Below, piece by piece: positions 18,057 to 40,205 of a DNA stretch of 55,206 bases; positions within the stretch are counted from its first letter, which is position 1, and each line of letters starts with the position of its first letter. A program made the translations under genes and the position numbers. Origin of the DNA: a virus (lineage: Duplodnaviria > Caudoviricetes); the IMG/VR virus record IMGVR_UViG_3300013131_001394, positions 1-55,206 of that record; one strand, given 5' to 3'. The notes beneath the pieces are model-generated. The model was not told where the DNA came from. It saw only the letters and a program-made list of their open reading frames with translations, and did no database searches.

Positions 18057-19136
18057 ATGTCAGAAAAGATTTCAGGCAATCGTACAGTTACTCCCAACGA
18101 AGCCAAACGTAGCCTTCGTAAGTGTATCAAAATTCAACGCCCTGTGTTTATGTGGGGTCCTCCAGGTATCGGTAAGTCAGATATCGTTAAACAAATCGGC
18201 GACGAGTTTGACCGTTCTGTAATTGATGTTCGACTGTCACTTTGGGAGCCCACTGACATCAAAGGTATCCCCTATTACAACTCAACGGCTAATACAATGA
18301 GTTGGGCTCCACCAGCAGAGTTACCCACTGATCCTGATAGCACGGCTATTTTATTCCTAGATGAGCTCAATTCTGCGGCTCCTGCTACACAGGCAGCGGC
18401 TTATCAACTTATTCTTAACCGTCGTGTAGGAACTTACATCCTGCCCAAAGGTGTAAGTATTGTGGCTGCTGGTAACCGTGAAGCAGATAAGGGTGTTACT
18501 TATCGTATGCCTGCTCCGTTGGCTAACCGTTTCCTTCATATTGAACTTAAGAGTGATTATGAAGATTGGCTAAACTGGGCCACTACTAATCGTGTACACG
18601 AGCAGGTGGTAGGTTACATCGGATTTGCCAAACAGGATCTTTACGACTTTGATCCTCGCAGTTCAAGCCGTTCATTTGCTACTCCACGTTCATGGAGTTT
18701 TGTAAGTGACCTGTTACATGATGACGATCTGGACGAAGGTACCCTTACAGATTTGGTAGCAGGTGCTGTCGGTGAAGGCCTTGCTGTTAAGTTTATGGCA
18801 CACCGTAAGGTAGCAAAACAGATGCCTAAGCCGGAAGACATCCTTGTAGGCAAAGTCAAAAAATGCGATATTAAGGAAATCTCTGCAATGTATTCTTTGA
18901 CTGTTAGTATGTGCTATGAACTACAGTCTTCACACCAAAAGAAGGCCAAGAACTGGGATGAAATGGCTGACTACTTCTTCAGTTTTATGATGGATAATTT
19001 CCCAACTGAGTTAGTAGTTATGGGTGCGAAGGTGGCTTTAACAAATTATGCGTTACCATTTGATGCTAGTAAACTTAAGAACTTCGACAGATTCCATGAG
19101 AAGTATGGCAAGTTCATTATCCAGGCAATGGAGTAA
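18057..19136 (+). CDS. MoxR-like AAA+ ATPase
   Basis: Walker A GPPGIGKS, Walker B LFLDE, AAGN, PLANRF, TPRSW. Confidence 0.9.
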   Translation: MSEKISGNRTVTPNEAKRSLRKCIKIQRPVFMWGPPGIGKSDIVKQIGDEFDRSVIDVRLSLWEPTDIKGIPYYNSTANTMSWAPPAELPTDPDSTAILFLDELNSAAPATQAAAYQLILNRRVGTYILPKGVSIVAAGNREADKGVTYRMPAPLANRFLHIELKSDYEDWLNWATTNRVHEQVVGYIGFAKQDLYDFDPRSSSRSFATPRSWSFVSDLLHDDDLDEGTLTDLVAGAVGEGLAVKFMAHRKVAKQMPKPEDILVGKVKKCDIKEISAMYSLTVSMCYELQSSHQKKAKNWDEMADYFFSFMMDNFPTELVVMGAKVALTNYALPFDASKLKNFDRFHEKYGKFIIQAME

Positions 19137-19138
19137 TT

Positions 19139-19162
19139 AAGGGCCCGCAGGGGCCTTTTTTA
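19139..19162 (+). terminator. Rho-independent terminator
   Basis: AAGGGCCC-GCAG-GGGCCTT stem running into a T tract, right after the MoxR stop. Confidence 0.85.
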
Positions 19163-19191
19163 TTGACAATGGTATGCTTAGAGTGTATAAT
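19163..19191 (+). promoter_or_regulatory. Perfect consensus sigma70 promoter
   Basis: TTGACA(19163-19168)-17 bp-TATAAT(19186-19191); AAGGAG RBS. Confidence 0.9.
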
Positions 19192-19220
19192 AGATATATA
19201 ATGTTAACAAGGAGTGAATT

Positions 19221-20468
19221 ATGGCTGTTATGAAATCAGAAAAAACTAAAAAGGTAGAAGCACGTAATTTTACCGAAGCAGAAAAAAACAAAATTGTAGA
19301 GAAATTGATTACTGCTCGTGTTGGGTTGTTACTGCGTCATCCTTTCTTTGGAAACTTAGCAACTCGTCTTAAACTTGTAGATTCTACTCACTGGTGTCCT
19401 ACTCTGGCTACAGACGGACGCTGTTTCTACTACAATAACGATTTTGTAAACCGACTCACTCCAAAACAGGCAGAGTTCGGATTTGCACACGAAGTCCTAC
19501 ATAATGTTTTTGATCATATGGGGCGCCGTGATGGGCGTGATCCTATACTGAGTAATATTGCGGCAGACTATGCCGTTAACCAAATCCTAAAAGATGAGCG
19601 CATCGGTGAAGTGCCTGACTGGATCAAAATTTTCCAGGATAACAAGTATCGCGGAATGAGTTATGAAGAAATCTATGCAGACATTTATGAAAAATCCCAA
19701 AAAATCAACATTTGCGGGTTAGGCGAGTTGTTAGATGAGCATCTAGATGGAGACGGCGATGGAGACGGCGATGGAGACGGCGATGGCAATAACGGTAAAG
19801 GTCGTCCTAAACTTACTCCGGAAGAACGTAAGGCTATCCGTGATGAGATCAAAGAGGCTATGGTAGCCGCTGCCCAGAGTGCCGGTGCAGGCAAGGTTCC
19901 CGCAGGTGTAGCACGCCTTATTAAGGATTTCACAGAGCCTAAAATGGACTGGCGTCAACTACTGCGTATGAATATCCAAAGCATTATCAAAAGCAATTAT
20001 AGTTTCGCCCGCCCAAATCGTAAAAGCCAACACTGTGGCGCAGTCCTTCCAGGTATGTTAAATGAAGAAACCATTGACGTAGCCGTAGGTATTGACCTAA
20101 GTGGTAGTATTAGTGACGACATGGCCAAAGACTTCATTAGTGAAGTTAAAGGTATAATGGAAGAATACAAAGACTTCAAACTTGACTTATGGTGTTTTGA
20201 TACCGAAGTGTATAACTACGCCGCATTTTCAATGGATAATGCAGATGAAATCATGTCCTACCAAGTTAAAGGCGGAGGAGGTACTGACTTTGAGGCCAAT
20301 TGGACCTTTATGAAAGAGCAAGGAATTGAACCAAAACGCTTTATTATGTTTACAGATGGATATCCTTGTGGCAGTTGGGGGGACGAAGATTACTGCGAAA
20401 CCCTGTTTGTTATTCACGGCAATGAATCCATAATTGCTCCGTTCGGACAGACTGCCTACTATAAATAA
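19221..20468 (+). CDS. Metallopeptidase-like plus VWA domain protein (DUF2201-like), MoxR partner
   Basis: HEVLH, NIAADY; MIDAS motifs DLSGS, GGGTDF, FTDG. Confidence 0.88.
   Translation: MAVMKSEKTKKVEARNFTEAEKNKIVEKLITARVGLLLRHPFFGNLATRLKLVDSTHWCPTLATDGRCFYYNNDFVNRLTPKQAEFGFAHEVLHNVFDHMGRRDGRDPILSNIAADYAVNQILKDERIGEVPDWIKIFQDNKYRGMSYEEIYADIYEKSQKINICGLGELLDEHLDGDGDGDGDGDGDGNNGKGRPKLTPEERKAIRDEIKEAMVAAAQSAGAGKVPAGVARLIKDFTEPKMDWRQLLRMNIQSIIKSNYSFARPNRKSQHCGAVLPGMLNEETIDVAVGIDLSGSISDDMAKDFISEVKGIMEEYKDFKLDLWCFDTEVYNYAAFSMDNADEIMSYQVKGGGGTDFEANWTFMKEQGIEPKRFIMFTDGYPCGSWGDEDYCETLFVIHGNESIIAPFGQTAYYK
19746..19786 (+). repeat. 12-bp tandem repeat (GATGGAGACGGC, about 3.4 copies) encoding a (DG)n linker
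   Basis: Read directly from the sequence. Confidence 0.9.
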
Positions 20469-20986: not shown

Positions 20987-21625
20987 ATGAAGCACGTAGG
21001 TAAGATGAAAAACAACGGAGCAAAGGTAGCAATTGTATATAGGACTCTACCTGGAGATCCGTATAGTGCTCTGGTAGTAGGCACAGGTAAGTTAGGTGCA
21101 AGTTACCACGATGCTCTAATGAGTATTATTCAAGATCCGGCTGGCCAAACTGCTAATGAGTTAGCAGACATTTTGTCTGTTCGTTCATTTCCAGACGGAT
21201 CTAATATGTTACAGTGGTTACACACTAGAGGACAACTCACTAAAGTTCCTACAAGCGGAGTATTGGTTACTCCTACTCCAAATGACAGCGTTCCTTTAGA
21301 CGAACTTAACGTATTAATTGCAGAGCAGAAAGGCCTTACAGTAGACGAACTTGCAGTTAGCGACGGTAATCGGACACCTAAAGGTTTAGATGATCCCACT
21401 AAGACAACCAGTTCTAGTGTATCAGGTGAAGTATACGAGCAGCCTCAAGAAATAGTTGCATCTATACCAGAACCTATCGTAATACCACAAAAAGAAGAAC
21501 CTGTTACCGCTGCGTCATTACGGTCAATGGCAGACAAATTGTTTAAAGAAGCACAGTTACTTCGTGCCAAGGCAGAAGAGATGGAACCAACTAAAAAGAA
21601 AGCAAAGGCACTTAAAGAAGCATGA
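20987..21625 (+). CDS. Hypothetical protein
   Basis: 212 aa MKHVGK...; AAGGA RBS. Confidence 0.8.
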   Translation: MKHVGKMKNNGAKVAIVYRTLPGDPYSALVVGTGKLGASYHDALMSIIQDPAGQTANELADILSVRSFPDGSNMLQWLHTRGQLTKVPTSGVLVTPTPNDSVPLDELNVLIAEQKGLTVDELAVSDGNRTPKGLDDPTKTTSSSVSGEVYEQPQEIVASIPEPIVIPQKEEPVTAASLRSMADKLFKEAQLLRAKAEEMEPTKKKAKALKEA

Positions 21626-21804
21626 ATTTCAAAGTCGGTGATAAAGTAATCAAGGTATCTGGTTATGCATGGCCTGGTATCGTTGTCAGTGTATTTGATA
21701 CACTAAAAGGCGAGCGCCGAGTCGTAGTGGAATGTACAGTACCTGAAGTAGCAGGTGCTTTACACATTTATAACGAATCTCAACTTAAGTTGCACAATGA
21801 CTGA
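21622..21804 (+). CDS. DfrB/R67-type (type II) dihydrofolate reductase homologue
   Basis: F.VGD.V.K.SG.AW.G.VV...VE....GALHIY aligns by eye with R67 [20 protein letters not shown]...VES...GSVQIY; overlaps the thyA start. Confidence 0.75.
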   Translation: MNFKVGDKVIKVSGYAWPGIVVSVFDTLKGERRVVVECTVPEVAGALHIYNESQLKLHND

Positions 21805-22678
21805 ACGAGTCTATCTAAATACTCTAAAAGACATTTTAGAGACTGGTGAGGGAAGACCCGATCGTACAGGTGTAGGCACAATCGGTAAGTTCGGTCTTCA
21901 AATGAAGTTTGATCTTACACTAGGATTTCCTGCTATTACAACTAAAAAACTAGCATGGAAGTCTGTTGTAAGCGAACTACTATGGTTTATCGAAGGTAGC
22001 GGTGACGAGTATAGACTTAAAGAAATTCTATACGGTTATCGTTATGATCCACGTAATACTATATGGTCTGACAATGCTAGTGCTCCTTACTGGACCAGCA
22101 AGAAAGTAGCAAGACATGCCGGGGATTTAGGTCGTATATATGGTGTTCAATGGCGTAGATGGCGAAAACCTTTGATCAGAGTAAACAAGGTTATTCTTGC
22201 TAACCACGATCAGTTATTAGAACTTGTAGACGGGTTAAAAAAAGATCCTTACAGTAGACGTCATATTATATCTGCATGGAATCCAGGTGAACTAGAACTA
22301 ATGGCATTACCCCCATGCCATATGATGGCGCAATTTTATGTAAGTAAAGCCAGAAAACTAAGTTGTCAGATGTATCAACGTAGTGCAGATATGTTTTTAG
22401 GAGTGCCTTTCAACATTGCCTCATATGCTTTATTCACCCATATGCTGGCGCAATGCTGTGACTTAGAAGTGGGAGAACTAACTATTACGCTAGGTGACGC
22501 TCACATTTATATAAATCACGCAGAACAAGTAAAAGAGCAGTTATCAAGAACTACTCTACAGTTGCCTACATTAAAATTAAATTCGGCAGTAAAAGATATT
22601 ACAAAGTTTACAATGAACGATATATCTTTAGTTGATTATACGCACCACTCTGCGTTAAAAGCGGAGATGGCAGTTTAA
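21797..22678 (+). CDS. thyA: Thymidylate synthase ThyA
   Basis: DRTGVGT, SELLWF, SRRHIISAWNP, MALPPCH, YQRSADMFLGVPFN, GDAHIY; start at ATG 21797 (ATGACTGA overlap). Confidence 0.96.
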   Translation: MTERVYLNTLKDILETGEGRPDRTGVGTIGKFGLQMKFDLTLGFPAITTKKLAWKSVVSELLWFIEGSGDEYRLKEILYGYRYDPRNTIWSDNASAPYWTSKKVARHAGDLGRIYGVQWRRWRKPLIRVNKVILANHDQLLELVDGLKKDPYSRRHIISAWNPGELELMALPPCHMMAQFYVSKARKLSCQMYQRSADMFLGVPFNIASYALFTHMLAQCCDLEVGELTITLGDAHIYINHAEQVKEQLSRTTLQLPTLKLNSAVKDITKFTMNDISLVDYTHHSALKAEMAV

Positions 22679-26486: not shown

Positions 26487-29400
26487 TTATAGTTCCTCTA
26501 GCGGCTCATCGTCTTGATCTGTTAGGGCAAATCCTCCCTCATTAGTTAGGGCAACATCACCTCCATAGTAATACTTATCTGGTAATTCTGCAGGTCTTGC
26601 CTGTAAGAATCTAGCAGGTACAGTGGTACTGGTCATTAATGAATAGGTAGATGTCGAGTTAACTGTATCATTCCATACATCTATAGCATCAAATTCTCTT
26701 TTTACAATTACTAATTTAATGCTTTGTTGTACACCTTCTTGTAAATTTAAATTGAGATACTGGTTCTGTATAGTAAATTCTGGTGGTACATAATTAATAC
26801 CACTATACTCATACCCGTTAAATGCATCATACTTGTCTGAATTAGTATAAATCCAGACTTGATTAGTTGATGTAATTACATAGGCTGTGCCTAACACTGT
26901 GGTAGTAGGAAGATATGATACTTCGGCTAACCATCTATTATTCCTTGCTTCTTGTGAATTTTTAATATTATTAAGGATTTCGGTATCTGTATCAATTAGG
27001 TTATTATAGTTACCTACCCAATAATCTAACCCTCCTTGATCGGGATATCTATTTAAATATCTCAGATAATAATTTGTAACTGTATTTGCATATGATGCAG
27101 GATCTGGTACTGTGGGTGATAACGGTGCACCATAATCGGGCGCATTGGGTATAGGCAAGAAATAAGGTGTGTCGTAGGTGAATTCTATATCCTGTTTGAA
27201 AGTGGCATTTTTATTTAAAATACGTCCACCATAAACTACTGTAACTTGATCCTCTAACTTTATAGGATTAGGTATAGAAGTCGTTGTACTAATTTCGTTT
27301 AGTGTAATACCATCATTAGTTACAGTGCTATATGATACAGGATTACCTAAATAATCAGTCGCTAGCGTAGATGTAGTAAATGACAATGTACTAATATAAT
27401 AAGTTGTGCTATTAGCCAGTGTATAGTGTGTCTGTTTTAATATTCTTTCAGAATACGGTACTGTTTGTTGCGATCCTTGATCAATAACTTTGGTATTCTC
27501 ATGCGAATAAAAACTAGGAGCAGTTCCTAAAGTTGCTCTCCTTAACTGACTTAACACATTAGATCCTACTTTGAAAAACTCAATACGTTCACCGTCTACA
27601 AGAATTACGCCAGGAAGATTCTTTTCAATATCCGGACTGGTCAACACATCTGCATTGTCAACATGTATTTCTGTATCATATACACTTAGTGGTCTGGTTA
27701 GATATGTAGAATTTTCCTTACTTAATCTCTTAAAATGTGTTCTATGGAAAATATCATGGAATATTCTATAACCTAATATAGTTGATGCTAATTTTTCGCT
27801 ACTAAATGTTATAATTGTAATCTCATTAGTTTCATTATGATAGAATTCATCTGAAATTTCTACTGTTACAGAATCATCTAATATCTCATAATCATAATGA
27901 TTTACTAAAGGTATACCGTCAACTATTACCCATACATAATTGCTATCAAGGGCAGGTCTACTTATCACATATCTTCTAGACGGATTACCACGGAATCGCT
28001 CTGTACGCATCAGCATATCGTCGTGATTATTGTAGGTTATAACTTTCAATTCATAAGGGTATGTAAACGATCCTGGATTTATGATTGTCAATTGACTACC
28101 AACAATATCATAATCGTATGTATATGAACCTTCCTGCGCTACAGCAGCAATTGCTATCACATCATCCTTAACTAATGGAACTAAAATATTATATGTATTA
28201 GCACCTGCTGCACTGTAATCAAAACCTCTCCTTAATTCTTTTCCATTTAGGTACACTCTAACCTGACTTAATGATCCGTAATTTACACCAGTTGTATTAA
28301 GTGTGTAAGCGGTAACTAAAGAATTTATAACTTTAAAATAACTTATATCAGGAGGTCTTAGGTATCTACGGGTACCGTTTTGGTTAACTTCAACAATTGT
28401 CTGTGCTACAACAGGTTCTATTATTCCCGGAGGATTCGCCAATGTCCAAGATGTTTCCGAAACATTTGTAACTTCTATAATTTCTTCATTTATTTCATTA
28501 AAATATCTTTGTGCTGTACCGAAAAACCATGCTGTAACGGTAGAAGTAGTAGTATCTACCAAATTATATACATTAACAGCAGCCCTGTTACTATTTTGAT
28601 TGGCCACAGTAAGCATGTATCCGTAATCAGTTGTAGTGGTAACTTCACTTATCGCAATGCCATTAACAGTAACATATGCACTCTTAACTGTACCAAATTG
28701 CGCAAGACTTACTAATTGAACTGTGCTTGTGCTACCTGTAAAACTTGTGGTATCTATAACACCTGCTTCTTTAAAGTCTCTACCGCCTCCTACACTAACA
28801 ATACTCACTCCTAATATACCTTTTATGGTTTGAGGAGGAACAATTATTTCATTCAATGTCCAATTAATGTTAAACTCGGTACTGGTTGTAAAATTAGTTG
28901 TAGAGTTATAGGTCATTAACCTGTTTTCAAAAGTTACCACTAGGCTGGAACTATTAGGAGGAGTAATACTTAATTGTCTGGTACTAGTTGATCCGGGGTA
29001 GATAACATAATAACTATTAACTACCACAGGCGCACCTTCAGGATGCTTGGTATAAACATTGATACCTACGCTTTGATTAATTTCACCTGGAACTAATTCT
29101 TCTGGAGCATAAGTGTGATTGGCACTGATAAATGACTCTCCATCTATAGTAATATCTTCAGGATTTATTCCTAGGGCTGCTACTCTTGTTCCAGTCGTCC
29201 AGCCGCCACCTTCTATAGCACTGTCTAAAATAGTAGTCTGTGTATCATATGACCAAAACTCTATACTAGCGATGCTAGTAGTATTTGTATATGTTCCTTC
29301 TACGAAAATAGTAGATATTGTAGCAGTTAACGGTAATAGGGTAGCAGTTGTAAATGTCACAGTACGAGCACTAGTGTTAACAGATTGAACTCGCGGATTA

Positions 29401-32400
29401 ATATTAAAAAATTGATTATCTAATTGCTGTCTGCTGGCACTAACTATGTTAACAAGTTGCCCAGGTTTTATACCCGTAGTGGTAGTTAATGTAAGCGTCG
29501 TGGTTCCTGAACTAGCAGTATTTGCGACTTCAATGTTTGTGTAAAATGCTATATCGTCGGCCCAGTAACTAATACCATAAGCACTAGTAGTTTCATTTCC
29601 TATGCGCTGGTCTGTTAGCCAGTTAATACCCCACTTAGTTGTGTAATTAAAAGGAAGACCTTCTACCACAGTCTTAGGAAACTCTATGCCATCCATTAAT
29701 TGTGACAATTCGTTTCCTGGCATACCGTCTGTAGGGCTATAGTATTCTAAAATACGATCAACGGCATTTAATAACGCAACATTCTTTTTATAATTTACCG
29801 TTAAAACTTGATTAGTCTTAGGCACATAGTTAATGAATATTATTTTATTATATGTCTTTTGATAATCAGTATTCGCACCTATATAATCTTTATAATAAGA
29901 AACAGTGTAGTCTGAACTTAGTACCAGTTGCCCGTCTAAAGTGATTTGAATTTGTGACTTATCAGGAACTGCAATCCATGATAATATGAATTCAGTATCT
30001 GCACCGTTACATAAAAATCTATCCTCAGTATCAATATCAAGAACTTCAGGTGCTCTAGAAGTTCTATCAAATTTCATACCTAAGGTAATTTCTCTTACGG
30101 TATCATTCGTCAATACTGCATAGCCTGTGGCTACCTTTGTAGGAGAACCTCCTCCTGATATTACAACTAACGGAGGCGTTGTATATCCAGATCCGTAGTT
30201 TGTAACTTCAAATCCTACTACAGATCCTGATCTAATAAATGCCTTAGCGGTAGCACCAGATCCTAAATCACCAGTCTGTGTAACTAGCGTTACTGTAGGT
30301 GTTTCTGTGTATCCTGTCCCCGGATCGGCTACTCTAATTTCTCCTACATAATATGTATAATTGTCAAGCCAAGATTTCCATGGGTACGTCAACATCCATG
30401 TATTAGTAGCAGTGAACTCAGAGGCAGACTGACTAGCCGGTATTGTTAAAGTATTAAATCCGTTTTTAGCATCATCATAATAAGGTGGAAAATCAAAATC
30501 TGTAATATAAGTGGCACTAGGTTCTACTTGATTATACCTTGTTGTAAAGTTTCTTATTTGAGTATGATACGGTTTAACTTCCTTGATATATGATTCATAA
30601 TATTCACTGTTTTGCAATTTATAGGTAGATCTTTGATCTAACGATCCTGCATTATTTGTTACATTAATAAAAGATGTTTTAAACGCCCAGTCCAGACGTT
30701 TTTGCTCTGTAAGAGCATATTTAACTGCCTGGAAAAATAATAAATTGTAATGTACTTTTAGATCATTAACAAAAAGATCTTCTTTTACTGCTTGTAGAAT
30801 ATTGTATGTTTCTTGATAAATTTCCGCAGACTCATCATTCCAGACTGTATCTTTAATTTTTATTGTACCGTTTTCACTATATACAATATTGTATCCTAGA
30901 CTAAATGTTCCTAAAATATTATCACTTATTTTTTCAAGAATTACATAGTTACCTTGCCCGTTATCATTTATCTTGACATACTGTCCTTGAGATATATCCT
31001 CTATCGTTTTTAACTGATATATTTCATCAAGAGTATATGCATAATCCACAAACTTGTTGTATGTCGAATCCAACCAATCAATATAATCCCAGTAAAGAGT
31101 TGTGTTATAAGATTGAGTTTCAGACAGTTCCCAGCCTAGAGTATACCCCTTATACTCGTACCTTGACCATTTACCATCTTGCGTACTATCTACTTCTACA
31201 ACTGCTGCAAAAGGTCTTACCGATAAACTAGGAGCACTAGCAAACCCAGACCCTGCATTTAAAATAATCACATCAATAACTTTTCCGTTAGCATCAATAA
31301 CAGTTTTTAATTCTGCACCGTTGTTATTATTCACTGTGATTAAGGGCGCATTAATATACCCATCTCCTGGTTCAATTATTGTTACACCAGTAATTTTACC
31401 GTTAGAAACAGAACAACTAATCTGTGCCTGTACTTTAGAATTAATATCAATAAAGTCTAACCCTTCTAGATCTTCTAGAATTATATCATATAATCCATCA
31501 GAGACATGAGGTATAGGCTCTTTAGATAGTAAATTTCGTAGACTATATTGTTCTGTTATACGCTGTGAGGATAAGACAGAGTTGATATATTCAACAACGT
31601 TGCGTAGGGCAATAAACCTATCTGCAAACAATGTTTGTCTAGGTCTAATACTAATACCATAACGTTCTCTAGCAGTAAGTGCAGGATCAGGAACCGGATT
31701 GCCTAAACTATCCCTTCCAAGCAAACTATCAAACAACTTTTTCTCTAACATCGCATTAGGCATCTGATTGGCAGATCCTTCTTGCATAAGTAACCACTCA
31801 GTATGTCGAGGTATGGGGTTGTTAATTATATCAGTTGCTATATTTAGGCTTATTCTATCATCTATTAACAGTGTACCTACGTTGGCAAGCGACAATGCAT
31901 TTTGATCCATTATTTGTCCGAACCTTAGTCCGTAAGCCGCAGGGTTTTCTATTATACTTGCCAATTGAACTGCTGTAGTTCTTCTGTTCTTTTTATTAGG
32001 TAGTATTATTCGATTCTTTACCCAGAAATAATAGACATTTGTAAATCCGCCTGTGGTAGGATTATAAACCTGCTTAACACTAAGCACATCATTCAAAGGA
32101 TGTTTAGGCTGTCCGCTTATCCCGTCCGCAAGTCCTTGAGACGTATCTGCTATAACTGCCCACTCACTAGGTAATAATTCGCTACCTACCCATTCGTAAA
32201 TGTCAATTGTGGAACCGGGAAATAATCTACCCCAATTATTTTTCCTATAACTTAGTTCGCCTTGCTCATACCATACGTATTTTGCATTGCTAGTATCCCA
32301 CCATATTTCACCGACATGATCATCTAACCAATTTGTTTCAGCATCAGTAACGGTTAATTCATTGCCTATAGAATAAACAGCAGGGTCTATATTAGACTTA

Positions 32401-35400
32401 TATTTTATATCTTCTTCGGCAACACCGGGTATTTTACCTTTTAAAGGGTCTATAATATCAAGATGTTCTAAAACTTCATCATTAAATGTATCATACAATG
32501 TTAATTTTTGTATGGTATTAATATCAACTAGTTGATCTTTACTACGTAAAATGTTCCAACTTTTATCTGCTACATTTTTCTTTCTGTATTGATAAAATGC
32601 ACTGTCTGGTAAGATACCGTCTATTACAGTTTTATATGCAGGTGCACCTACATATATAGAATCATCATTTACTGCTAGGCTAAATCCGTAATTAGTTCCT
32701 GTATTAGGATCTAATAAACTCATTTCATCTGCTAACTTAAACGTGTTCAAATACCTATTATAGACGTATGCACTTCCACTAAACTTAACAGTATCAAAAA
32801 ATGTTGTCGAGCCTGAATCAAATGTTGTACTATCGGTTAAATCACTATTAACATCTTTTACATATTTTGTTCCGTATATACTTAATGAATTTAACAAAAG
32901 TGATTCATATCTATCAAAAGTTAATTGTAAGTTTCTATTTGTACCTTGTGCTGTGACAACAAGTTCAGTATTATCTGAATTAATTCCTATTGCCTTACCG
33001 AATTTCATACCGGGACTACCGACAGGGTTTTGTATTATCGAATCTAATTCAAAATGTACAGCATCAGTTAATGTATTTTTATAAACTGCTACCTTACCGA
33101 ATGATTGATCATAGTTTCTAGAATCGGGTGCTCCTACAAAAATATACTGCCCATCTTTACTAACTGCAACTGACTCTCCAAACTTAGCATTACGTTCAAA
33201 CGGACTAGTTAAAGTTTGCAGATATGTGATATCGGTAGTGGTATACACACTAACAAAACCTGTACCTGTGTAATATCCAGGAGCCGCAACAGCAGTAACT
33301 TCGGCCAGATTAGATCCTTGTATAACTTGACCCCATCGTGATCCTACATTTACATCAAAGGGCGCTGTGATCTGTTTAACATAAGTCACATTTATCTGAG
33401 TAGAGGCTGTGGTAAAATTATAAACATAAACAGATCCTGTACCTAGTGTAGATGTAAAGGGAGCGCCTATCATTAAAACCTGTGTAGATCCGGTAGACAA
33501 ATTACTTGTATAAATGCTAGAACCAAATCTTTCATAACTTGCAGGTGTAGGACTTATTAGAGCACCTTGACTAACTTCTGTACCTGTGCCTTCAAACGTA
33601 CTAATTTTTACCAAACCTTCTTCTAACCTTGCGCTGTAAGAACCTGTATTCCCGGCAAAACGTAAACCACCGGATGAATATGACTCTCTAGTAAAACTTA
33701 CTAAAGGAGCACCTGCAAAAACGGTGCCGAATGAAGAAGTACCAAGTTGATTTGTGTGATAGGCTAACCCTTGTCCGAAATTAGTGTATCCTCCGGGCTG
33801 ATAATATGTTGTAACAAGATTATTAACCGTCCAACTGGAAATTAATTCAATGTCTGTATCCGATTCATGAAATAAAAATACAGTTCCGGTATTTGTTCCT
33901 GTACCGGAAGCACTTACAACAAAATTTCCTAAATTATCTTTACCGGTTATTTTATAGCCTAATTGTGTAGTAGTGTTAACGCTAACAGTGTTTAGACCTT
34001 GACTATTATAGTTTTTGATCTTTGCTACAACTTGCCAGTTATCTGCTCCGTCATCTATCAACCAATTCTTAGCACCGTATGGTAATTTTAATAAGAAATT
34101 ATCCCTAGGTAACTTATCAAAATTATCAAACTTAGCACTTTGAAACTTGAAAACAAGTCCCTGAGTTTCAGCAGTAAGACCTGAAAAGAAGAATGTAGAA
34201 GTGGTGCTTATTACAAAAGTGTTAATTGTAGGTACCTCTACAACTTGATAAACTCCGTTAACTGTATCACTAAATTGACTAATACTAACAATATCGAACT
34301 TAGAAATGTTATGTGCTTTTGTCGTTTTAAAGATATATCTGTCTGTAGAACCTTCCTGTAAAGTTATGCTACTTAACTTGGAACTACCTAATACATACCT
34401 AAAAACATCCCAGTCATTATTATTTTTATTAGCAATCCAGACATAGTCATCGATTAACAAACTTCTGTTATTGCTAATATCGGTGATAGAATTTGTATTG
34501 TAAGCAGTGTAATCTACATCGTCAAATCTTACGAAACCTGCCGTTTCTAATTTTAATATGTCTGGGTCATTAGTTGTGATAAAAGTGCTCGACGATATAT
34601 AGCCATCATAACTTATTAATAAATCAGTCTGTGTTGTATAATAAATTAGACTTTTATTATCGATTTCAATTTCTTCATTAAATGTTACAATTTGCGGATT
34701 ATCAACAAATTCGCCTTCTTTTAACTTAACCTCGAGTTCTTTATATGTCTCAAACGAACCGAAGTGTCCTATTCTAAATGCCCATTCTTCATTGTAACTA
34801 ATTTCACCTTGTAGATTATGAATAGCAGCCTTGGCTAATTTTTCAATAGCATTACGTGTACCTTTTTCTCTAATAAACCCTTGATAGAATTTGTATTGAG
34901 CAATAGGATTGGTAAAGATATTATTAAGATATGGACGAGGAGTATAACCTACCAGATGCTGAGCCATTCTTTGTTGGGCAGAATCAAAATTGTCAATGTC
35001 TAAACTATAGAAATCTTCAAACTGATTAATCTTATAGTCAAAATTAGGTAATAATTGTGCCACAGGCTTTTCGCCTAACAATACCCATTCAGTAAATGTA
35101 AACTTATCCGAACCTATAATATTATTTTTAGCAGTGTAATATTTTCCGTTAAATCTAACAACATCACTGGCATTGTAATTTGTGAACTTTTGCCAGTCAT
35201 TAATATATGCGGTGTCATAGACGAATCCAGGGCTAAAATAATCACCGTCCCAATCTCTAGTTCTAAATCCTGTCAATCTTACCCTACGCTGTCTATATCC
35301 TGTAGCAGTATCATATATTGTATCATTGAAGATTGTTGTATTATTAAGTACTATAGCATGTTCTTTTTGAATACTGTTTAAGGTAGCAAAGTAAAGACCA

Positions 35401-38400
35401 TCTGCTAGATTCACAGTAGACACTGTGCATAGTCCATCTTCTCTATTAACATTAATGTTATTTTTAGGAATAGGAATCCCATTTGCCTGTAGTAAACTAT
35501 AGTCGTAAAAACTATTGAATATATTATCAACAACTGTATTAGGTAATTTAAACTTAAGTTTATCTGCAAAAGGACTGAGTGTTATTACATTATTGTTCGC
35601 CCAGTTCTGACTTACCCAGTACAAGAATTCTTCGCCTGTAAATGTCCAGTCAATTACACGCAGAAGGTCTGCATTATAATCATCAAATACAAATCCTCTT
35701 GTAGTTAACCATTGGCCGTACCCTATTATTATATCGTAGACCTCTTGAATTTTGTCAAACGTAGATCCATAAGGAATGATTTCTTCTTGCTTATTAAATC
35801 CGTTCCATTTTTGAACAGTAACTCCGCCCTTAATAGGTAAAGAAGGCATGCGTTGATAATAAGCATCTTCAAATTTGTTACCGCTTCTATGACGAGTCTT
35901 AACTCTATAAAAATTATTATCGTACTTTACTATTTGTCCTACTTCATAAAATATTCCGCCTGTAGAGACTGCGGCTGTGGTAATATCTCCTACTGCCGAA
36001 CTACTTGTAGGAGCATTTGAACTGGGTTTCCAGTCGACATACGGTTCACTTATACCTCCAACATTTATAGTAGGTGTATTAATATTTCTTCGAGGCCTAA
36101 ATATTGTAAAATAAGGATCTTTCTTATCATAACCTTTTAGAACAAATAAACCATTTTGTTTTTGTACAATAATACCGCTAATACTGTTAGTGCTTACAGG
36201 ATTACTTACATTTAGGATTAATTCAAAATCCTCAGGAGGAAGTATACTACCGGGACTTGTGCTTGTAGGATCTATCGCATCAATTACTACCTGAACCTTA
36301 TCCTTGCTAATAAAACCGCCAACTTTGTAAAATAAATTAAAATCAGCATAATCTAAATCTGACCTTAATTCTTTTATATAATTACTTGTTCGAGTTAAAC
36401 CTGCTTCTACAACATATACGCCGTATCCGCTCAATAAATTACTAGTTTCAGTGTGAACAAAAATATTTTTCAAACTTAAAAAGTCTAGTGTATCACCGTA
36501 TATTAATTGTCCTGCTAAATTTAAATTAATTCTATAAGGGTCATACATGTAAGAGCAATAGTGAACAGGGCTGCATAATGCCATAACCTTTTGAACTACA
36601 AAAGGCCAGTAACTACTTCTACGCCATGCTGCTTCAGCAGGTCCGATATCACCTACTTGCCAATCTTTACTTTTTTGCCCTAATTTAATATTTTCCAAAA
36701 TAATGTCAGGCTCAATTAAATTACCTTGACTATCAGACGGAACTACATTAAGCAACCCATCTCGTTTATATATTGTATCTACACCCTGTCGAGATCCTTG
36801 TCTAATTCTCCCATCAGCAAGATCTTCCCATAAAGGCAGATTTCCCGAAGTGTAGGGGGCAACTCCGTATTGACCTTCCCACCATGAGGGTTTTTCACTA
36901 AAACCTAACATCTCCCACGGATGACTGTGTGGCCTATCTGTTCCGTAAAGATATCTATATACAGCACGCCATGATCCTGTCAAATGTGTATCAATGCTAC
37001 TGATATAAGAACCAGTGTAGTTCCATGTAAAAGGATTGGCTTCATCGAAAGCACCATTAGTTTCACTGTCTATACCATAAAATCCTGCCCACCTTACAAA
37101 ATCCTTTGTAATAATCCTGTTAATGTCTACTGTATTAAAACTATTTGTTTTAAACGCACCTGGAATAAGTTCATTATAGTCTAAAAGATCCTGTCTGTAG
37201 GTAACTTTAATATTATTGTATACACGTTTTTCAAACTCTAAGATTATGTCATCTCTATAATCATCATAACTTCTTATGATGCTGCCATCATGACATTGTA
37301 TTACATAGACAGGATCTACATAAGTGTCATCAAGGTATAGTTCGGGATTATATTTAGGATATAATCCTAACTTAGTAGGAGTAGGTGGAACATATGATCC
37401 TACAGTAGACGTATATTCAACTGTCTTAAGAATATCACCTATGTTTAATGAAGTTAAAATTTGTATAGATGCATCATTAGTAACAAATTCATAATCTTTG
37501 CCAACAATTAACTGTGTATCATTAAGGTAAACTAATACACTTTTATCGGTAAGTGTATCCAATGTAAATTCATTATTGATAGGAAATTCAATATTAGCAG
37601 GGTTGGTTACAGTCCACTCACGCTCTTTCTTGTCCGGACCATATCCTACCATGTCTGAATAATAATATGAACTTAATAAATCTTTATCTGCATTTAATTC
37701 TTTAAGTATTTGATCAACTGCTTGTGCGGGCGTTAAATCATCAGCCATATCACCCGCTTTACGTAGGAAGGCTAACTTAAATTGATTATATTGATCAGCA
37801 GCCTTATCTAGTGCTGTAATAAGACTATGTTCTTTTTTACCTAAAAACATTAAACTGAAAGCGATAGGATTAAGATTTGATATTAATCTTTTTCCATGTG
37901 TTTCAATACTATCTATATCCCTTAAATTACTTTGTCCGGGAAAACTGCCTACAAATGCAGGACTACTTTCAGTCATGCTCTTTACATGATCACTTAGTTC
38001 AGTAAAGGTAAGTGTGCCGAACTTCTGATTTAAAGGATTGTTTGTCAATGCTAAAGGAGATTCCCAATGTCCCGCTGAACCTAATGAATTATAAGTGTGT
38101 ATTTTAACAAGTACATTAGATCCTGCTGAAATATCATTGTTAAATTGAACAATAACATTTCCGTTGGATTCAGATACACTATAAGTATCAGCCAAAATTT
38201 TAGCATTATTAACAAAAACTTCTATCACATAATCTGATAAAACAGGCTTAAATGATTCAAGTTTAATTATAGCAGTATCAACTTCTAGTGTTTTAAATTC
38301 AAGTATAGGTATGCTATATTCGTTAGCGACCTGCCATGCATTTTTATAAACATCACCATCTTCGTGTGCGTATTTTACAAATGCATTGCTTGTTTTTACA

Positions 38401-40205
38401 GTAGAACCTGTGTTAAGAGTAATTACTTCATTGTTTAAATAATCTTCAAAAGTAAACCCACCTATACCTTGATTAGCATAATTTACAAAAATATTTAGAA
38501 TAGGATCAAGATATGTGCCTACTTCATATCCCAAAATCTTATTACCAGCAAAACTAGTAGATTCAAAACTATTACCGTCATTATCAAATAAATCAAATAA
38601 CGGTGCTTCATTTAGTGAGTTATGATTCTGGCCCTGCGTCCATTCCGATCCGTTAAACCACCAGTTAGTTGATTTATATTTTACACCTTGATTAACAGAA
38701 CAACAGATACCTGCCTGTGCTTCATATACTTCATTTAATTCTAAACGTTTTTTACCGTTTATATAGATAAAGTTAACTTCGTATATCTTATTTCTAACCT
38801 GCTCACCTGTATCAGCAACAAATATAACACGTTGACCTTGTTCTAACCTTACTTGATCTGCAATGTGTCCTATACTTCCTTCTACTAGACTAAATGCATC
38901 TGTTATGTAGTCATCAATCAAATCAACGTTAGGAATACCTTGCGTTCCGAAATTAAACAATGTCAGATCTGCTTTAAATTCAATAATAGGTCTTTTAGCA
39001 CGCTTATCATTAGGATAAACAGGAACTAAGTTATTAGCCTCAGCACTCTTTGTTATTACATCTCTGTGAACCCATCTATTGTATCGTGTCCAAGGATTTA
39101 AATCCCTGCTACCTCTGTTTATTGTAATATATTCTGGATTGACGGGCAGAGCGCTGTAATTGTCGAAAGGGTATACATCAAAAGGACTAGCATCAAAGTT
39201 TTCGTCGTATATTTCACTTAGGTTATCGGTTGTCACAAGACTAGCAACATCTATTAACCGAATTGCATGTCCAACACCTTCAACAAAAAATTCTTTATCT
39301 ATATAGGAAGCAGGTGTTACTGTACCTCCGAACCTAATTTTCATACCGTTCGTAAGTTCTACACCTGTACCAGATGTATATGATTGCTTTCCTACTATTT
39401 CATCATCAACATTAATAATACTATCTTCTGCGATATTTCTTACAGCGATAAGTCCTTTGGCAAGACTAGATGCATCTGCTGCATAATACAATGTGTCAGG
39501 TGTATCATCGTCTATCATCATTGTAACTACACCGCTGCTGATGCCATTATTGTTGATGTTAACATTATACGCATCGCTGCTACCCAGACTAGGTTGTGTT
39601 TTAATAAAAAACTTGTAAACAGAACTTACGTTAAAATTGTATGTATTACCCCTATATAGTATTAGTAGAGGATCTTCTGTTACACCATTAGGTGTGAATA
39701 CAAAACTAGTTTCACTATCATTGTCAGATACTGTAAATGTGCTAGTCGAATTTAGTTGTGTTCCGGTAATTGTTACTGTGTCGGCTCCATTGACTAACCA
39801 GTAATATTCTTGATAATTTACAAACTTGTCAAGATCAATATGCGGATTATATGAAGCAAAATGTGACCTGTATAACTTGTCAAAGTTACTGATATTTCCA
39901 TTATTAAAACTTATTGTATTCGATAAATCATCTATACCGATTACATCATTTACAGCATCTGAATTATTCTTAATAACTAGAGCAGGTTCGAGTTGATAAT
40001 CACGACGTAACTGGCTAGTCTCTGTCAAATAATTGTCAGTATTTTTATAGTTAGGGACTAGTTTTGATCCTATATAACCGTCAATACGCTCTAGGCTAGG
40101 TGGCTGTATGAGTTGATCAATTGTACTTGATAAAAACTTACTGTTTTTTTCCGATCTAATAAATTCAGGTAAAAGATTAACAGATTTAATACTTTTTTCA
40201 GCCAT
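26487..40205 (-). CDS. Giant (4572 aa) baseplate wedge / virion structural protein
   Basis: Uninterrupted ORF next to the gp6-like gene; [11 protein letters not shown] and EVKPYH wedge-type motifs; G.GY...P repeats; FG-GAP-like propeller. Confidence 0.8.

Follow-up and report, generated by a model that had tools for sequence, protein, structure and literature searches.

Every catalytic cycle of ThyA converts methylene-tetrahydrofolate into dihydrofolate by oxidation, and the T4-type gene order pairs the genes frd and td. In T4-type frd-td pairs, as in phage dfrA-thyA pairs, the reductase gene of a lytic phage lies immediately 5' of the thymidylate synthase gene, which is also the arrangement at the locus described here. 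The closest described systems come from a study (Lemay-St-Denis et al., Mol Biol Evol 2025; PMC12486381) that covers 386 DfrB homologues, including 20 from viruses. According to that study, all four viral cluster II DfrBs belong to genomes that lack FolA and are encoded near thyA, one of them at a distance of 5 bp; three of the four were validated as active, and a role in dTMP synthesis was proposed for them. An LHIY DfrB fused to thymidylate synthase (DfrB-TS) was reported to be tetrameric and active, with a kcat of 2.3 per s; activity was found for 114 of 123 proteins predicted to be tetramers, and an LHIF homologue, A0A6J5PTB3, was a poor catalyst. The same authors put forward the general hypothesis that R67-type tetramers were selected to bind or buffer NADPH or nucleotides, dihydrofolate reductase (DHFR) activity being incidental. 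The available text of the paper gives thyA proximity for four viruses and describes neither a slot-for-slot exchange with folA nor ThyX relatives without both reductases, and its supplementary table S1 may hold closer matches or synteny. A separate survey lists 8 dfrB genes among 1961 phage dfr candidates (PMC12466917); because all eight are 50-72% identical to known DfrBs, the survey, as its available text presents it, would miss the clade described here. Among the papers listed by literature searches, none has a title or abstract opening that tells of folA and dfrB exchanging in one slot.

The window analysed here is a virus record of 55,206 bases, estimated to be about 15% complete. It carries DNA polymerase B, baseplate and tail genes and is a piece of a jumbo myophage genome, a fragment of a tailed phage of roughly 350-400 kb. 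As the first-pass annotation had noted, a 60-aa reading frame overlaps thyA (Table 1): the TGA of the DfrB gene occupies 21802-21804 and the ATG of thyA 21797-21799, the shared letters being ATGACTGA. A start/stop overlap is likewise present in all five relatives aligned, and the layout of the letters makes translational coupling of the two genes likely. The ATG that opens the DfrB gene in turn shares letters with the stop codon of the 212-aa gene before it (ATGA). Scanned from residue 2, ThyA gives a match to Pfam Thymidylat_synt with E 1.6e-101; a GTG-started, 307-aa reading of thyA from 21755 was dropped because the thyA starts of relatives align with the ATG at 21797. FolA (PF00186) has no match in the window, as previously noted, and this absence says little by itself because the record holds only that small share of the genome.

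Table 1. Coordinates of the DfrB-thyA locus in the window
Feature	Position	Strand	Details
212-aa gene, conserved, without Pfam family; borders the slot on its upstream side throughout the phage family	20987..21625	+	
DfrB/R67-type (LHIY) dihydrofolate reductase homologue, SH3-like barrel, predicted	21622..21804	+	60 aa; sequence profile and fold
Start/stop overlap ATGACTGA	21797..21804	+	DfrB gene stop over thyA start
thyA, thymidylate synthase	21797..22678	+	293 aa from ATG at 21797; Pfam PF00303

Around this locus, a MoxR-like AAA ATPase gene followed by a gene for a DUF2201 metallopeptidase/VWA protein (18057-20468, + strand) is conserved on the 5' side in relatives. Downstream, thyA and an opposite-strand 255-aa gene abut end to end at 22678/22679 with a spacer of zero, and the G+C skew flips sign near this junction, along with the coding strand. 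Within the virion-gene block, the minus strand holds a 4572-aa ORF (26487-40205) with only weak matches to FG-GAP and DUF4214.

Comparison with the Pfam DHFR_2 profile (PF06442), which the first-pass annotation had proposed as a check, gave a single-sequence match at E 0.0016 that nonetheless fell below the gathering threshold (18.7 bits versus a cut-off of 25). Likewise as a single sequence, the protein matched PDB entry 2p4t, the Q67H mutant of R67, at E 0.0094 by phmmer. A 109-member profile, composed of the window protein and relatives hand-picked from 269 listed, matched 2p4t at E 3.7e-6 and wild-type R67 at E 1.2e-4, and the next unrelated match stood at E 0.32. Individually, 53 of the 109 family members matched DHFR_2 at E<0.01, the best at E 1.1e-6, and any other family was matched by at most two. 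By these profile comparisons, the 60-aa protein is a genuine R67/DfrB homologue, 32-34% identical to R67, and it falls outside the FolA/DfrA family (DHFR_1; ~160-aa alpha/beta monomer, PF00186). Its relatives number 457 at the 90%-identity cluster level (proteins of 33-105 residues) and 706 clusters at the 50% level; annotated phage genomes hold distant relatives only, in six records and at 40-50% identity. Judging by pN/pS values of 0.12-0.24 against eight relatives, uncorrected, the DfrB gene evolves under purifying selection.

We mapped residues through the phmmer alignment to R67, in structure numbering, with residues 1..59 of the model corresponding to chain residues 22..78. Both this alignment and the structural one bear out the correspondence that had been drawn by eye: K11, G14 and W17 are the equivalents of R67 K32, G35 and W38, and L47-H48-I49-Y50 replaces V66-Q67-I68-Y69. 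The Lys or Arg at position 32 that marks the catalytic DfrBs of clusters I-II is present as K11, and LHIY follows the nonpolar/polar/nonpolar/aromatic pattern of the B4 strand. A Lys equivalent to K32 is found in 108 of 109 aligned relatives, of which 73 have LHIY and 27 have LHIF as the active-site motif. With R67/DfrB1 (1vie, 2rk1; Q67H, 2p4t) the window protein thus shares the SH3-like barrel together with K32, G35, W38, G64, I68 and Y69; it differs in the change from VQIY to LHIY, the loss of K33 and H62, a two-residue loop insertion, the missing N-terminal 20-residue extension of R67, and the lack of an integron or plasmid context. Its net charge is zero (7 K/R and 7 D/E).

The AlphaFold2 monomer of the protein has a pLDDT of 94.9, and as modelled it is the SH3-like beta-barrel monomer of the DfrB/R67 family. 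Foldseek places R67 entries at all of ranks 1-7 (TM 0.75-0.79), and VIA-align puts 1vie at the top, with Z 9.4, rmsd 2.1, 57 residues aligned and 33% identity. Because Tudor (Z 8.8) and KOW (Z 8.6) folds come within 1 Z of R67, fold alone cannot discriminate among them; identity, by contrast, is 33% to R67 and 15-24% to the other folds in the top 12. An unrelated SH3, KOW or Tudor identity is ruled out on these sequence grounds, not by Z-score. The homology asserted in the first-pass annotation therefore stands: R67 came first in both fold searches as well as in the profile search, and no unrelated SH3 or KOW protein gave a better match.

In its LHIY/LHIF strand, its K32 equivalent, its occurrence in a DNA phage, its position next to thyA and the lack of FolA, the window protein resembles viral cluster II as that group is described in PMC12486381; compared with the DfrB-TS fusion of the same paper, it is encoded as a separate gene. 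By motif and context it fits a cluster-II-like assignment. The clinical genes dfrB1-10 are cluster I integron cassettes with VQIY, a mobile context and deviant G+C, and the window gene has none of these features. Its G+C is 0.40, versus 0.42 and 0.39 in its neighbours, and integrase and transposase families were absent among the 50 window ORFs scanned. The LHIY motif and the low identity to R67 rule out a direct link to clinical dfrB, and only distant homology joins the window gene to the clinical VQIY cassettes.

We then compared the interval between the 212-aa marker gene and thyA, here called the slot, across the 80 closest of 529 viral thyA loci. FolA fills the slot at 34 of these loci, DfrB at 5 and a methyltransferase-like gene at 1, and the remaining 40 have no gene there, which answers the earlier question whether relatives carry folA at this position. 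FolA calls were made by tblastn with one slot protein, and Pfam confirmed FolA in all 10 slot proteins tested (E 4e-33 or better). A FolA-type reductase thus precedes thyA in sister phages, whereas the window reductase has the unrelated DfrB fold. A 213-aa methyltransferase-like gene was also seen in the slot, alone or before folA (L078, 2339-2980; L089, 1878-2519, + strand).

Whole-record searches of 24 FolA-slot records, two of which are near-complete genomes (322 and 353 kb), found FolA in 24 and DfrB in none, with a DfrB profile that detected three of three known carriers as a positive control. Conversely, FolA was found in none of 50 DfrB-carrying records (chosen, mostly by length, from the 67 found, and mostly fragments). 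FolA and DfrB never occur together in the records searched. The presence of FolA in the same slot and this lack of co-occurrence support the non-orthologous replacement put forward in the first-pass annotation. A quick ThyA tree built from 95 sequences needs at least two changes to account for DfrB in the slot, and on it a FolA phage (L084) stands, with good support, next to two phages with DfrB (L038 and L042). The 24 empty-slot records searched contain neither FolA nor DfrB; because the completeness of these records is 11-46% and all of them stop short of the two further DfrB sites described below, a relocated DfrB and reliance on host FolA look the same in them. Neither a DfrB-filled nor an empty slot turned up on a complete genome in the viral scans, the best records being G011 (69% complete), G022 (37%) and G005 (35%).

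Three near-complete, more distant relatives of 356-400 kb (G101, G102 and G106) encode ThyX just 3' of the 212-aa marker gene, and ThyA, FolA and DfrB are all absent from them. Because ThyX yields no dihydrofolate (PMC12486381), the absence of DfrB from these genomes is what a DHFR role leads one to expect. Twelve other distant relatives (L456-L467) have a ~100-aa ORF along with the marker gene, with no thyA or thyX in the downstream DNA available; four records of this type, 18-27% complete, gave no thymidylate synthase on whole-record search.

DfrB is also found away from thyA. The window arrangement occurs in 7 of 67 DfrB loci and thyA lies nearby in 1 more, and the remaining 59 have no thyA within 4 kb. 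Most of these others are fragments of the same jumbo family, in which DfrB follows an ATP-dependent DNA ligase gene or precedes an NTP pyrophosphohydrolase gene near GTP cyclohydrolase I. The window's own DfrB clade was observed at both of these further sites (L003-L044). In G011, ThyA is present and DfrB lies 135 kb away beside DNA ligase, with neither FolA nor ThyX in the record. Around the site-B marker gene, DfrB was found within 4 kb in only 4 of 80 loci, some of them truncated. In an unrelated phage (L062, 1593-4186, + strand), genes follow one another for an NTP pyrophosphohydrolase fusion, a ThyA of divergent sequence, dCMP deaminase and, last, DfrB. Further, six records that are at least 90% complete (phages or prophages of 35-61 kb) carry DfrB relatives and no ThyA, ThyX or FolA, so the wider DfrB family is not tied to phage thyA. 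In provirus G042, an LHIY DfrB-like domain lies inside a 309-aa protein (L067, 3524-4453, + strand), near what appear by eye to be a 371-aa sliding-clamp-like gene and a 401-aa integrase-like gene, a setting that recalls the dnaN/xerC contexts reported in PMC12486381; the G042 record holds no thymidylate synthase or FolA.

In our judgement, the 60-aa protein is most probably a DHFR that recycles the dihydrofolate of ThyA in place of FolA. DfrB would be made together with ThyA from the overlapping reading frames, and four copies would assemble into a homotetramer of the R67 type, with NADPH and dihydrofolate held in a central pore that the LHIY strands line and K11 (R67 K32) gates. The enzyme would regenerate the tetrahydrofolate that phage ThyA oxidises at every dUMP-to-dTMP turnover, performing FolA's job at the locus where sister phages have FolA. 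Tetramer formation, catalysis and trimethoprim insensitivity are expected by analogy with characterised homologues, and a benefit in infection may be presumed. An auxiliary role, in which the supply of dTMP would be boosted, is more likely than an essential one; strict essentiality is improbable because half of the slots are empty and six near-complete carriers have no thymidylate synthase. Counting against the DHFR reading are also the 59 DfrB loci with thyA not in reach, the sub-threshold Pfam score, the closeness of the Tudor and KOW folds, the lost K33 and H62, the zero net charge and the poor catalysis of the LHIF homologue.

That the R67-type tetramer was selected to bind or buffer NADPH or nucleotides, its DHFR activity being incidental, is an unlikely explanation. 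It would accommodate the relatives found in those small phages and prophages that lack a thymidylate synthase, the DfrB genes that adjoin DNA ligase or NTP pyrophosphohydrolase in the same jumbo family, and the His at the Q67 position, as in the R67 Q67H mutant. That mutant binds its cofactor more tightly and turns over slowly. The published general hypothesis and the weak LHIF homologue A0A6J5PTB3 point in the same direction, but the LHIY DfrB-TS has normal kinetics (PMC12486381), and the exact slot exchange with FolA, the lack of FolA co-occurrence and the absence of DfrB from three near-complete ThyX relatives all argue against this explanation.

We consider it very unlikely that DfrB is an active DHFR carried as a mobile accessory gene for the host folate pool, lying before thyA without specific coupling to dTMP synthesis. 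Although DfrB is seen at three or more sites within the genomes of a single phage family and in the slot at two or more places on the ThyA tree, and although 40 of 80 slots are empty, the fact that it came to the folA slot repeatedly, its start and stop overlapping with neighbouring genes, speaks against such a gene, as do the independent thyA-dCMP deaminase-DfrB cluster of L062 and the absence of DfrB from ThyX genomes. Scarcely plausible is a protein of SH3, KOW or Tudor type that has no catalytic activity, or a DfrB homologue that, like clusters III-V of PMC12486381, forms no tetramer: the profile is significant for R67 alone, identity to R67 exceeds that to the other top folds, the slot is equivalent to that of FolA, and the motif, as listed in the available text of that paper, belongs to active cluster II and not to clusters III-V. 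These points outweigh a DHFR_2 score under the Pfam cut-off and the closeness of the Tudor and KOW Z-scores, which would otherwise suit such a protein. Returning to a DHFR that serves ThyA in place of FolA, a broader proposal is possible but tentative, namely that thymidylate synthesis in this jumbo family is an exchangeable module at one locus, occurring as ThyA with FolA, as ThyA with DfrB (adjacent or relocated) or as ThyX alone, with FolA and DfrB swapped more than once.

The natural folate-recycling role that the first-pass annotation had offered as new was already proposed for viral cluster II, whose members were assayed for activity, and the window gene is a further example of the DfrB type described in that 2025 study (PMC12486381). 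The additions made here are genomic and modest: the slot exchange, the mutual exclusion with FolA, and the absence of DfrB in ThyX relatives. This comparison of sister genomes backs the published hypothesis that phages use a four-subunit DfrB in place of FolA to supply thymidylate synthase, and L084 with L038 and L042 offers a natural pair for asking why an enzyme roughly 100-fold slower is kept. The DfrB clade is annotated as 'hypothetical' and scores below the Pfam cut-off. If the exchangeable-module proposal is true, large phages would be a main setting in which DfrB catalysis is the selected function rather than a side activity, and they may hold a large pool of putatively trimethoprim-insensitive reductases (the 457 clusters at 90% identity) that standard annotation misses.
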